Shown: positions 1,980 through 3,769 of the stretch, in pieces
Position numbering within the stretch: position 1 is the stretch's first letter
Layout of the letters: each line of letters begins with the position of its first letter
Notes under the pieces: model-generated
The model's input: only the letters and a program-made list of their open reading frames with translations
What the model was told of the DNA's origin: nothing
The model's database searches: none
Translations under genes and position numbers: made by a program
Virus record (IMG/VR): IMGVR_UViG_2703718815_000007
Origin: a virus
Lineage: Duplodnaviria > Heunggongvirae > Uroviricota > Caudoviricetes
Strand: one strand, 5' to 3'
DNA length: 4,992 nucleotides

Positions 1980-1984
1980 TCAGG

Positions 1985-2005
1985 CTGGCGGCACACAGCC
2001 GCCAC
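1985..2005 (+). other. GC-rich stem-loop immediately after the alpA stop, without a U-tract
   Basis: 7-bp stem TGGCGGC (1986-1992) with GCCGCCA (1998-2004), loop ACACA. No T-run on either side, so not a canonical intrinsic terminator. Confidence 0.4.
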
Positions 2006-2031
2006 CCATCCACTAATACAGAGATCTAACC

Positions 2032-3312
2032 ATGAATACTGGATATTCTCCCGAACAAGGGCGGGGCTTCGTTCGTCCTGAAAAACAGAATCTGCAAAAT
2101 TTTGCCGAAATTATTCCGGTTATTTCCGGCCTTACTGGCGGGAGTGAAACCAATATTGTTAACGCCAGAGCGTTGCAGATGTTTGATGATAAAAAGGGAG
2201 TAAATTTAACTTACACCCCTGACGGCAATCAGAATATGAGCATTATCTCTGAGTCAGGTTTCTACAAACTAATAAAAACAAAAAGCGCCCCGTTGCCGGA
2301 GCGCCTTTGTGAACAATTAACCTACTGCGCAAAAAATGAATCTGAGCAGTGGGATTATATCAACCGTGTGGTGAAGCGCCACTATTGCCGGATAACAGGC
2401 AAAACAAAGGCGACCGCAAAAGGGTCGCCAGTGGGAACAAGGGAAAACAAAAGCATCACCAACAATGCCACATTTGCGGCTGGTGGGCAATGTGATCAGT
2501 CAGATTTGGTTCGTTCCAAGGTTTGCAACGAGAGTTTTTTCCTGCGCTCTTTAAGGAATTTCTCAAGAGCAAACGAACAAGGTGCGAATCTTTCTGATTC
2601 ATGCTCTATCTTTCTGCGCCGTCTTTTCCGTGTCGGTGATAATGTTTTGGTCAATTCTTTATCGGTCATTGTGTTGTCCTGCATAGCAATGCGCCGTAAT
2701 ACCTTACACCACGGCGCTGGTGATGGTTATTCCTGCTCTTTGGCCTTGCGACGCTGGCGGTATTCAACTTCTCGCTTTAATGCTGCTGTTACAAACTGCC
2801 CTGTACTTTCACCAGGCATTTTTACCGCCTCAACATTGTTCATAACTTCATGCGGAACCCTTGCCGCAACTGTTTGTGATTTTGCGTTTACTGCTTTTGT
2901 TGCCATGTTGTGTACCCCTTACAAAAAACAAATGCAGTATGCAGGAAAAAAAATAAGTGTTCAACACTTGACGTGTTTAACACCAGGGCTTAAATTGGTG
3001 TTCAACACCTTACTGATGCAAGGTGCAGAAACGACGAAACCCGGCAGTGCGCTAACACTAACCGGGCTTCTAACCACCAACGATAGAAAGCGTATCGAGG
3101 TAGCTATGAGAAATTATACCAGACACCCGCAAGGGCGGGACTCGTACAACCTGAATAAATACATCTGGCGTTTTATCGCCCTGAGCACGGCACAACCGCG
3201 CGTGATTACCATTGAGGCCACCAGCGAACAGGAAGCGCGTCAGCAATCTCCTGATGGCTGCGTGATGGTATTCGCTGCCCGTATTCGTCAGGGGGTACGC
3301 CATGTGCAATAA
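2032..3312 (+). CDS. uncertain 426-codon open frame, probably not a single gene; the first ~130 codons look protein-like, the middle looks like antisense read-through, the last 68 codons are the separate Icd/Kil-like ORF
   Basis: Seen: no stop in this frame from 2032 to 3312. Codons ~135-290 are Cys/Ser/Leu/Arg/Phe-rich, and this frame is wobble-aligned antisense to two minus-strand ORFs with their own RBS, promoter and terminators. The segment MSIISESGFYKLIKTKSAP resembles the Bro-N/antirepressor ISE.GLY.LI..S motif, but that is a weak by-eye resemblance. Two minus-oriented terminator hairpins lie inside it. Confidence 0.25.
   Translation: MNTGYSPEQGRGFVRPEKQNLQNFAEIIPVISGLTGGSETNIVNARALQMFDDKKGVNLTYTPDGNQNMSIISESGFYKLIKTKSAPLPERLCEQLTYCAKNESEQWDYINRVVKRHYCRITGKTKATAKGSPVGTRENKSITNNATFAAGGQCDQSDLVRSKVCNESFFLRSLRNFSRANEQGANLSDSCSIFLRRLFRVGDNVLVNSLSVIVLSCIAMRRNTLHHGAGDGYSCSLALRRWRYSTSRFNAAVTNCPVLSPGIFTASTLFITSCGTLAATVCDFAFTAFVAMLCTPYKKQMQYAGKKISVQHLTCLTPGLKLVFNTLLMQGAETTKPGSALTLTGLLTTNDRKRIEVAMRNYTRHPQGRDSYNLNKYIWRFIALSTAQPRVITIEATSEQEARQQSPDGCVMVFAARIRQGVRHVQ
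2271..2304 (-). terminator. candidate intrinsic terminator for leftward transcription (distal of two)
   Basis: GC-rich imperfect stem 2285-2292 with 2297-2304 (7 of 8 pairs), loop TTGC. On the minus strand it is followed by TTTTTGTTTTTATT (complement of 2271-2284). On the plus strand it is followed only by CTTTGTG. Confidence 0.4.
2401..2429 (-). terminator. candidate intrinsic terminator for the leftward RHH cassette (proximal)
   Basis: Perfect 7-bp stem GGCGACC (2409-2415) with GGTCGCC (2423-2429), 7-nt loop. On the minus strand it is followed by TTTGTTTT (complement of 2401-2408). It lies 66 nt beyond the stop of the 62-aa minus ORF. Confidence 0.55.
2496..2684 (-). CDS. small highly basic protein of unknown function, second gene of the leftward cassette
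   Basis: 62-aa ORF MQDNTMTDKELTKTLSPTRKRRRRKIEHESERFAPCSFALEKFLKERRKKLSLQTLERTKSD. The internal ATG at 2669 has AGGA 7 nt upstream, so the product is probably 57 aa. Protein-like K/E/R-rich composition, same strand as and just downstream of the RHH gene, followed by a terminator. No family recognised. Confidence 0.4.
   Translation of the reverse strand: MQDNTMTDKELTKTLSPTRKRRRRKIEHESERFAPCSFALEKFLKERRKKLSLQTLERTKSD
2727..2906 (-). CDS. Arc/MetJ-like ribbon-helix-helix DNA-binding protein, candidate repressor of the switch region
   Basis: 59-aa ORF, hand-translated (below the track's length cutoff): MATKAVNAKSQTVAARVPHEVMNNVEAVKMPGESTGQFVTAALKREVEYRQRRKAKEQE. Fits RHH layout: beta-strand (VAARVPHEV), helix A, G-x-S/T turn (PGESTG), helix B (QFVTAALKREVE), basic tail. 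SD AAGGGG 8 nt upstream of the ATG. Fold assignment is by eye. Confidence 0.6.
   Translation of the reverse strand: MATKAVNAKSQTVAARVPHEVMNNVEAVKMPGESTGQFVTAALKREVEYRQRRKAKEQE
2936..2964 (-). promoter_or_regulatory. candidate sigma70 promoter for the leftward RHH cassette
   Basis: On the minus strand: TTGAAC (complement of 2959-2964, inside operator site 1), 17-bp spacer, CATACT (complement of 2936-2941). This gives a leader of about 23 nt carrying the AAGGGG SD. Confidence 0.35.
2955..3009. promoter_or_regulatory. operator array: three palindromes sharing the core GTGTT-N-AACAC
   Basis: Site 1 at 2955-2969 AAGTGTT-C-AACACTT (7-bp arms); site 2 at 2973-2983 GTGTT-T-AACAC; site 3 at 2997-3009 GGTGTT-C-AACACC (6-bp arms). 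The sites overlap both candidate promoters. Confidence 0.65.
2968..2996 (+). promoter_or_regulatory. candidate sigma70 promoter for the rightward icd-like/replication operon
   Basis: TTGACG (2968-2973), 17-bp spacer, TAAATT (2991-2996). Operator site 2 sits in the spacer and site 3 at the predicted start. The 5' UTR would be about 100 nt to ATG 3106. Confidence 0.4.
3106..3312 (+). CDS. small protein, first gene of the rightward operon; possibly Icd/Kil-like (positional analogue of P4 kil)
   Basis: 68 aa: MRNYTRHPQGRDSYNLNKYIWRFIALSTAQPRVITIEATSEQEARQQSPDGCVMVFAARIRQGVRHVQ. SD GAGG 5 nt upstream. The in-frame ATG at 3016 has no SD and lies about 13 nt from the predicted start, so it is disfavoured. 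The Icd-like label is from memory of annotations in P4-like prophages and is low-certainty. Confidence 0.5.
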   Translation: MRNYTRHPQGRDSYNLNKYIWRFIALSTAQPRVITIEATSEQEARQQSPDGCVMVFAARIRQGVRHVQ

Positions 3313-3769
3313 CACCCGTCCGGACGCAGCCGCCGAAGCCATCAAAACGCTGATGCACGCGCTGATTGATATTTCTGTTATCGCAGACAAGGCGCATAAG
3401 CACGCCACCAGCGAAACAGAATATGCCGGGGCTTTCGTTCCTCACTCACTGGCTGTTATGCAATTTAGTGCTGATATGGCACTGAATGAGGCCAGGGCTA
3501 TCCTGATTGCTGATTGTGAAAATGGGGGGGGGGTTATGCGTGATGATCGTTTTAATGCCCTGAAACAGGAATTTTATGGCGCACCGGATGATACAGGCGA
3601 TGCGTTGCTGGTTGTTAATGACCTGATAAAGGCCGCATGTTTTTTAATTGGAACCGCTGAACATTCAGGAACCGGCAACGATATTCTTATTATTGCGTCG
3701 GATTATGCTGAATATGTGGCAGAGGCGCGTTACAGAAGAAAATTCCCGGAGAATGTAAGCCATGTGTGA
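3302..3769 (+). CDS. hypothetical protein (155 aa), translationally coupled to the upstream ORF; contains an in-frame G10 tract
   Basis: ATG 3302 overlaps the upstream stop (3310-3312). Strong SD AGGGGG at 3290-3295, 6 nt upstream. Protein-like composition. No family recognised. Confidence 0.65.
   Translation: MCNNTRPDAAAEAIKTLMHALIDISVIADKAHKHATSETEYAGAFVPHSLAVMQFSADMALNEARAILIADCENGGGVMRDDRFNALKQEFYGAPDDTGDALLVVNDLIKAACFLIGTAEHSGTGNDILIIASDYAEYVAEARYRRKFPENVSHV
3524..3533 (+). repeat. homopolymeric G10 tract inside the 155-aa ORF (encodes GGG)
   Basis: Ten consecutive G read directly. G9 or G11 would give a stop within about 10 codons. Confidence 0.9.

Follow-up and report, generated by a model that had tools for sequence, protein, structure and literature searches.

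The long open reading frame (ORF) considered here, 426 codons on the plus strand of IMG/VR virus record IMGVR_UViG_2703718815_000007, is most readily introduced through the system it most resembles, the nested eta/kil genes of satellite phage P4; throughout, "the window" denotes the whole stretch of this record that was analysed, 4,992 nucleotides in length. Specifically, P4 eta is a Bro-network gene, is coupled to an alpA homologue, and contains a constitutive internal promoter together with the CI/seqA immunity RNAs (PMC10111431). P4 Kil is an in-frame truncated form of Eta, and translation of Eta prevents termination, with the effect that transcripts from the late promoter read through (PMC10111431, citing Forti et al. 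1999, J Bacteriol 181:5225, on eta/kil). In the P4 record used for comparison (L141), the frame has 214 codons (8168-8812), adjoins ORF88/vis, and carries the Pfam ASH domain in its middle. As described below, the frame in the window is kept stop-free by selection across the whole gap from alpA to the replication genes; it is selected as translatable, and conservation at the level of protein is limited to its last 68 codons.

The window itself is, judging from its gene order (int, alpA, the long-frame locus, small ORFs, a DUF4222 gene and primase), from the 93% identity of its DNA to roxA-adjacent Escherichia coli islands, and from a layout and site the same as those of EcCICFT073 in strain CFT073, a Gram-negative phage-inducible chromosomal island (PICI) of the EcCICFT073 type; helper dependence and packaging genes fall outside it. 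At least part of the 1701-bp query is matched in 1698 of 5426 complete E. coli genomes. In EcCICFT073, AlpA acts as an activator, and expression of a reporter fusion to the gene that follows alpA depends on it (PMC6092414); the same 2018 paper states a likeness to P4 proteins for AlpA, Pri-Rep and Int alone and calls a global repressor unclear. A Bro zone has been described in Gram-negative PICIs (PMC10111431), and later papers treat YlcI and Icd-like proteins merely as accessory genes. The window shares with these published islands its type and gene order, and EcCICFT073 has a 428-codon version of the frame at the same position, built around a different YlcI allele; however, the published descriptions located in the searchable library mention no embedded minus-strand YlcI operon, type-specific operators, antisense small RNA (sRNA) or Kil homology. 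Nested eta/kil genes and the PICI Bro zone are already on record, but the searchable literature yielded neither a repressor operon embedded whole and antisense in such a frame, nor the operator types, nor the antisense sRNA, nor the Kil homology of EcCICFT073-type islands.

Two other systems are similar in part. In immI of phage P22 (mnt/P_ant/arc-ant/sar RNA), a small ribbon-helix-helix (RHH) repressor is encoded divergently from the promoter that it controls, and a short cis-antisense RNA lies over the ribosome-binding site of the downstream gene; we know of no long frame there that runs antisense through the repressor gene. Compared by architecture, the window would share with immI the divergent RHH-type repressor and the cis-antisense RNA over a ribosome-binding site. 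The SymR/SymE pair (RF01809) is likewise similar in its ~77-nt two-hairpin cis-antisense RNA, which lies beside the start codon of its target and covers the Shine-Dalgarno (SD) sequence, but the target in the window is a Kil/Icd-like ORF and not SymE, and the score falls below the gathering threshold.

Layout of the locus and its relation to P4

The locus comprises the following features.

1791-1979: alpA, AlpA family (PF05930, 66 bits), with a GTG start
2032-3312, plus strand: the long frame, 426 codons with an ATG start, from just 3' of alpA to the Kil/Icd-like end
2032-2430, plus strand: N-terminal segment of the frame, a decayed Bro-N-like domain with a ~20-residue in-frame deletion relative to a homologue (P0016)
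2281-2308, minus strand: distal intrinsic terminator of the RHH operon, a 12-bp stem with 7 GC pairs, then TGTTTTTATT
2409-2429, minus strand: proximal intrinsic terminator of the same operon, a 7-bp stem with 6 GC pairs, then TTTGTTTTGC
2496-2684, minus strand: gene 2 of the operon, 62 amino acids (aa) as listed, basic, matching phrog_21027 (2e-13)
2727-2906, minus strand: gene for a YlcI/YnfO small protein (the "RHH" gene), 59 aa, NF041551 at 59.7 bits (cut-off 30), phrog_949
2946-2953: run of eight A residues in the spacer, seven in L014, L035 (=L129) and L041
2957-2967, 2973-2983 and 2998-3008: operator-like palindromes GTGTTYAACAC that bracket the plus-strand promoter
2968-2996, plus strand: predicted sigma-70-like promoter inside the long frame (TTGACG, 17 nt, TAAATT)
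3028-3105, minus strand: candidate cis-antisense sRNA of ~78 nt covering the kil leader and SD, with a terminator hairpin at 3040-3066
3106-3312, plus strand: nested Kil/Icd-like gene, 68 aa, in frame with the long ORF, with its own SD (GAGGT, 3097-3101)
3113-3121, minus strand: extended -10 for the sRNA, TGGTATAAT, within codons 3-6 of the Kil/Icd-like gene

Much of this arrangement had been anticipated by an earlier sequence-only reading of the window. The frame is open from 2032 to 3312 as it stated, and is antisense, as it also stated, to two minus-strand ORFs, two minus-strand terminators and a promoter/operator region; both minus-strand ORFs match protein families. The claim that the plus and minus frames share wobble positions is borne out by the third positions of both minus ORFs, which lie at coordinate mod 3 = 0, and the hairpins with minus-strand U-tracts that had been placed at 2271-2304 and 2401-2429 were recovered as terminator-like hairpins at 2308-2281 and 2429-2409. 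The proposal that the last 68 codons form a small ORF with its own SD agrees with the GAGGT ahead of it and with its match to NF033153. The middle third is indeed enriched in Cys, Ser, Leu and Arg (32%, compared with 23% in neighbouring genes), although the enrichment is only modest. We also agree that a transcript reading through from alpA would be antisense to the RHH gene.

The likeness to P4 is one of plan. In both elements a long frame follows closely on an AlpA-family gene (vis in P4) and passes through immunity determinants and an internal promoter; in both it ends in a killing or division-inhibitor ORF of ~65 aa that is also expressed alone from the internal promoter (a prediction in the case of the window), the two C-terminal ORFs belong to the same family (NF033153), and the replication/primase operon comes next. 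The differences are equally clear. P4 eta has 197-214 codons, compared with 426 in the window; it carries ASH and, on the sense strand, an RNA immunity system (CI/C4, seqA), with no gene on the opposite strand, whereas the frame in the window overlaps protein-type operators and, on the opposite strand, two complete genes, two terminators and an sRNA gene; and eta is reported to be translationally coupled to vis, whereas 52 nt separate alpA from the frame in the window. A tblastn search against a phage collection gave no P4 match, and BLASTP to P4 Eta gave no significant pairwise similarity, such that the link to P4 exists at the level of profiles only.

Some relatives bring the two plans together. 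In L047 and L048, one long frame runs antisense through YlcI, then through isrK and then C4, in the order found in P4 eta, which makes these frames one family with exchangeable immunity cassettes. The RNA elements lie at 2508-2693 in L047, at 2030-2693 in L048 (with two copies of C4) and at 8420-8692 in P4; some islands thus combine both immunity systems, antisense YlcI and isrK-like/C4 RNAs, in one frame. The ASH domain is present in the same frame of another relative (P0006).

Selection keeps the frame open

The protein encoded by the whole frame returned 1885 matches, including dozens of full-length homologues (421-474 aa, 67-89% identity), one of which occurs on at least 1000 contigs; homologues of 305-375 aa likewise span the whole middle third. 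The suggestion of the sequence-only reading that the frame is a shadow ORF that a gene caller would over-call is mostly contradicted by this result: full-length homologues, which that reading itself had named as evidence that would count against it, were found many times over. Its broader view that the frame is probably not one gene fares better, since the minus-strand genes are real and under amino acid constraint and the tail is a separate gene.

For comparison across relatives, 137 loci were fetched through YlcI or Icd-like ORF anchors, that is, without selection on the middle of the plus frame. In most of the 83 distinct relatives, the Icd frame is stop-free over the 800 nt upstream of the Icd ATG, and each of the other two plus frames contains 12-20 stops over the same distance. 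Within the window, the open stretch from stop to stop is 431 codons long; shuffling 1980-3320 300 times with doublets preserved gave 116 on average and 223 at most. The frame fills the gap from the upstream gene to kil in every architecture compared, including the L005 type, which has no Bro-N-like part but in which the long frame still starts right after alpA; in other architectures, the junction with alpA is an overlap or a short gap (-8 to +19 nt). The same architecture is found in a Klebsiella-type element at 37% identity and also in Escherichia ruysiae, Citrobacter, Edwardsiella and Dryocola.

The shared wobble positions define where a plus-strand stop could arise: it requires a minus-strand codon ending in T before Tyr, His or Gln (C or T before Tyr). 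We therefore compared the observed sequences with an analytic null based on synonymous codons, calibrated on int, primase and other real genes, in which observed and expected shadow stops agree at ~3 per 100 codons. Among 12 alleles of the RHH gene with less than 80% identity, 12 are open, and the base that would make a stop is found at 0 of 48 sentinel sites, where 12.7 are expected; likewise, all 10 alleles of gene 2 are open, with 0 of 17 sentinel sites carrying that base and 4.3 expected. For the 6 RHH alleles below 60% identity alone, the product of probabilities is 1.3e-3. The sentinel codons vary synonymously (TCA/TCG, CCG/CCA/CCC, GGG/GGA), such that the pattern is more than identity by descent.

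The spacer between the RHH start and the Icd ATG consists of ~200 nt of promoter and operator DNA and exists in 13 mutually dissimilar types, yet the plus frame that continues the RHH shadow contains 2 stops in 828 codons (both at -22), where ~65 are expected; the other two plus frames of the same 13 types contain 130 stops in 1656 codons. Spacer lengths of 140, 191, 194, 197, 200 and 206 nt are all in phase. In the lineages that are out of phase (the L084 type and L050), 278-401 codons are still open, and the stop lies 22 nt short of the Icd ATG. An RHH frame extended at its N-terminus, with the open spacer as its shadow, was considered and ruled out; the minus frame in question has stops in 8 of 14 types, 21 stops in all, and a longer RHH gene therefore does not account for the open plus frame.

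Variation within the minus-strand genes shows where constraint on amino acids lies. Among 235 distinct variants in these genes, 0 create a stop in the plus frame. Among close variants, changes synonymous in both strands are most frequent (121 of 512 possible, rate 0.24), followed by those synonymous in the minus and non-synonymous in the plus frame (25 of 177, rate 0.14) and by those non-synonymous in the minus and synonymous in the plus frame (13 of 267, rate 0.05). Together, these rates and the absence of stops indicate that the minus-strand proteins bear the amino acid constraint and that the plus frame is only kept open. The N-terminal part of the frame, which overlaps no minus-strand gene, has a ratio of non-synonymous to synonymous change (N/S) of 0.57 (p = 0.21) and no third-position excess, compared by the same method with 0.11 for alpA and 0.19 for the Icd-like tail (p = 2.5e-10; both p < 1e-9).

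Two further comparisons were made. As a single control, ylcI of the K-12 prophage DLP12, which lies in a lambdoid late region, has a shadow frame of 90 codons that ends shortly beyond the gene. Loci at which no Icd neighbour of YlcI was detectable were considered as negative controls and rejected, as the same long antisense frame is present in them. A genome-wide scan with a narrow RHH alignment yielded 4 loci.

The antisense operon, the kil tail and the surrounding island

The sequence features of the embedded minus-strand operon are those of an immunity region. The YlcI-type protein is a candidate immunity repressor, with a putative RHH fold that is suggested by the label given in the first reading and by the sequence pattern; its gene exists in ~15 diverged alleles, and the operator repeats differ to match, one set for each allele. 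In the window these repeats follow GTGTTYAACAC, with 7 matches where 0.21 are expected, and other immunity types have different repeats at the same positions, around a conserved -35 element (TTGAC(G/A)). We read these allele-specific repeat triplets as the signature of immunity specificity types, and the promoter at 2968-2996 as the predicted counterpart of P4 P_LE, which would drive kil and the replication genes. Gene 2, which has several diverged alleles at the same position among relatives, likely starts at Met6 (2669), giving 57 aa: an AGGA SD precedes this codon, relatives agree, and the Prokaryotic Genome Annotation Pipeline (PGAP) gives a 57-aa coding sequence in both L002 and CFT073. 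A copy of the operator with one mismatch, GTGTTAAGCAC, lies at 1791-1801, exactly on the GTG start codon of alpA. Control of alpA by the RHH protein through this site was considered and rejected; no equivalent copy occurs in other immunity types, which have no motif of their own upstream of alpA, and the near-operator is thus probably due to chance.

The nested gene at the end of the frame scores 70.3 bits against NF033153 (cut-off 25), and residues 161-208 of P4 Eta score 73.1 bits. Both are members of this family, by which the tail is predicted to be a Kil-type cell-division or killing peptide. The ATG at 3016, which would give a protein of 98 aa (as in the 93-aa PHROG 6196), was rejected as the Kil start because the codon is GCG in L001 and so is not conserved.

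Several observations support a ~78-nt cis-antisense sRNA predicted to cover the kil leader and SD. Its 3' hairpin, which is followed by a U-rich tract on the minus strand, is represented by about nine sequence variants with nine compensatory pairs; pairing is 96.5%, a value reached in 0 of 500 shuffles. The strand is indicated by 502 of 520 pairs in the minus orientation (96.5%, 83 of them G·U) compared with 420 of 520 (80.8%) in the plus mirror, and by minimum free energies of -36.2 and -22.3 kcal/mol, respectively, the minus strand being the more stable in 20 of 20 sequences. The extended -10, TGGTATGAT or TGGTATAAT, is nearly invariant in 61 variants and is placed for an RNA start at ~3105. 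The best Rfam match of the element, and the only one in the window, is SymR on the minus strand, at 32.8 bits compared with a gathering score of 61, and it is not a member of that family.

Annotation of the locus is inconsistent. PGAP often leaves the long frame unannotated, and in CFT073 (L149, 8714-9853) it places zero plus-strand features; elsewhere the label is a 300-470-aa "Icd-like protein". At L001 3037-3564, an in-frame fragment is called a "BRO-N ... missing C-terminus" pseudogene, at L002 2218-2625 there is a 135-aa extended Icd-like protein, and at L003 1321-1858 there is a "hypothetical protein" pseudogene.

Upstream of the locus lies the tyrosine integrase gene, assigned as an ORF with a family match:

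164-1414: tyrosine integrase, int

The heptamer GGAACAA occurs five times in the window, where 1.0 is expected: two minus-strand copies lie 5' of int (96-112), two plus-strand copies 3' of int (1449-1495), and the fifth is at 2434. The copies form inverted sets within ACAAC-rich repeats (1441-1500) and may be putative arm-type sites for the integrase or binding sites for AlpA. Also 3' of int, at 1601-1635, is a hairpin, GGCGTAAA...TTTACGCC, between an A-run and a T-run, with a promoter-like site on the minus strand nearby (1647-1618); the hairpin may terminate transcription in both directions or mark where an intergenic RNA starts. The int-alpA RNA (RF02996) has no match in the window at E <= 1, though the int-alpA intergenic region is 376 nt long; it is found in the relatives L145 (5461-5529) and L047 (5943-6010).

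Downstream of the long frame, a chain of short plus-strand ORFs, closely spaced or overlapping, leads through the DUF4222 gene to the start of primase. One of these, a 155-aa ORF (3302-3769), contains a run of ten G residues (3524-3533) just before an internal ATG (3536). Relatives have two separately annotated ORFs of ~75-79 aa here (in L001, 4115-4354 and 4347-4580), and the PHROGs collection contains a fused family (phrog_2512) as well as half families (phrog_5146 and phrog_24341). The G-run could be a slippage site at which the two ORFs are fused or split.

Possible roles of the frame

We consider it probable, with some reserve, that the long frame is the island counterpart of P4 nested eta/kil and that it carries ribosomes across the embedded immunity cassette into kil and the replication genes. 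In the quiescent state, the YlcI-type protein would bind its operators and repress the internal promoter, and the antisense sRNA would block translation of any leaky kil mRNA. Upon induction of AlpA by a helper phage, AlpA-dependent transcription from upstream would enter the long frame, and ribosomes starting at 2032 would translate through the antisense genes, the operators and the target of the sRNA. Such translation over ~1.1 kb would shield the RNA from Rho termination and melt the structure of the leader, with the effect that both transcription and translation are delivered into kil and the tightly packed replication ORFs downstream. The selection against stops, in the absence of amino acid constraint, lends the proposed protection from termination indirect support. 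Furthermore, the read-through transcript, being convergent with and antisense to the repressor operon, should lower expression of the repressor. The act of translation would then be more important than the 426-aa product. The AlpA-dependent reporter of EcCICFT073 is consistent with this read-through model, although it could not be confirmed that the "ORF3" of that island is the long frame.

The alternative that survives best, although we consider it unlikely, is that the 426-aa protein is itself selected as a functional long isoform, a Bro-network regulator in which a tolerant linker joins an N-terminal domain to the Kil/Icd-like one. Only alpA-side transcripts would give rise to it, and it would exist beside the short Kil from the internal promoter. 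P4 Eta has been treated as a Bro-network protein (PMC10111431), and intact domains are present in the same frame of relatives: ASH in P0006, and in P0016, which has 20 extra amino acids in its N-terminus, Bro-N at 52.9 bits. In addition, 11 of the 13 spacer types are fused in phase to kil. In the window, however, residues 1-133 match Bro-N (PF02498) at 16.8 bits, under the gathering score of 25.6, and are not a member; PHROG matches to Ant/anti-repressor proteins cover aa 49-91; and the segment not only is missing the stretch of ~20 residues found in the Bro-N-positive relative but also has an N/S that is not significant. The middle third is wholly different between immunity types and only weakly constrained, and AlphaFold, with a shallow alignment of 29 close homologues, gives a mean predicted local distance difference test (pLDDT) of 26.7 and no confident fold. 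Likewise, some lineages persist with a stop 22 nt ahead of kil that separates it from the frame: the L084 type (at least 9 loci), L050 and Edwardsiella.

It is much less probable still that the frame is a shadow ORF or annotation artefact, open through shared wobble and short spacers and never translated. The geometry that this explanation invokes is real, and with chances of ~0.28 and ~0.81 of being open, the two minus-strand genes of the window taken singly would demand little more; the amino acid constraint sits on the minus-strand proteins, PGAP often skips the frame, and K-12 ylcI also has no shadow stops inside the gene. What chance cannot account for is the near-absence of stops in 13 unrelated spacer types, the missing stop-making synonymous codons across diverged alleles, spacer lengths that keep the phase, or a frame that always fills the gap to kil, and the K-12 shadow frame closes as soon as it leaves the gene. 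The idea of a ~130-aa gene after alpA whose stop codon was lost in this element, raised by the sequence-only reading and suggested by the weak Bro-N/Ant-like character of the N-terminal ~130 residues and by the minus-strand terminator near 2430, can be all but dismissed, as a stop near 2430 is found in none of the relatives examined, elements down to 67% identity have the frame unbroken, the L005 type keeps the long frame without the Bro-N-like part, and the N-terminal codons show no clear purifying selection.

Several observations weigh against the proposal that the frame is an eta/kil counterpart acting as a path for ribosomes. That the frame is translated, that transcripts from the alpA promoter read through it and that termination would depend on Rho are all inferred from the DNA sequence. 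There is no match to ASH (PF10554) in the window and none to the C4 or isrK RNAs at E <= 1 (Rfam), such that the immunity mechanism of P4 itself is not applicable. The 52 nt that separate the ATG at 2032 from the stop of alpA (1979) contain a stable GC-rich hairpin (1983-2007, core GGCGGC-ACACA-GCCGCC, -17.3 kcal/mol, z = -3.8, with no U-tract), and the SD ahead of this ATG is weak; gap, hairpin and weak SD together indicate that the frame in the window is not translationally coupled to alpA, and the hairpin could be a processing, attenuator or pause site that controls entry into the frame. The spacer types share their last ~75 nt, and thus their independence is perhaps incomplete. The frame is closed in a few relatives, namely L085, L115, L083 and the variants with seven A residues, in which it is broken ~150 nt before the Icd ATG; these last are possibly sequencing errors, or could reflect recent inactivation or a slippage-based switch. 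Finally, a pure translation-only model does not predict that 11 of 13 spacer types fuse the frame to kil, and this hints that the fused product may matter.

A broader interpretation of the eta/kil-like frame is quite possible, and we put it forward more tentatively: that the locus is a case of bidirectional coding with selection on both strands, in which the plus frame is open purely so that ribosomes can escort AlpA-driven transcription, and in which the antisense operon, with its YlcI-type repressor, type-specific operators and cis-antisense sRNA, is the missing immunity or repressor system of Gram-negative PICIs, with at least a dozen specificity types and with the RNA-based immunity cassette of P4 as an equivalent for which it can be exchanged.

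The locus presents a statistically clean natural case of a frame held open by selection without conservation of its product, across genes on the opposite strand, and as such it is relevant both to the debated question of antisense overlapping genes and to the way in which the coupling of transcription and translation shapes sequence. For the PICI field, its interest lies in a candidate repressor that exists in many specificity types, with operators to match, together with a Kil homologue and a candidate antisense sRNA, and the description of an eta/kil-type nested frame over an antisense operon would provide one consistent account of a locus that has been labelled inconsistently. It also points to a concrete route by which induction of AlpA may override immunity.

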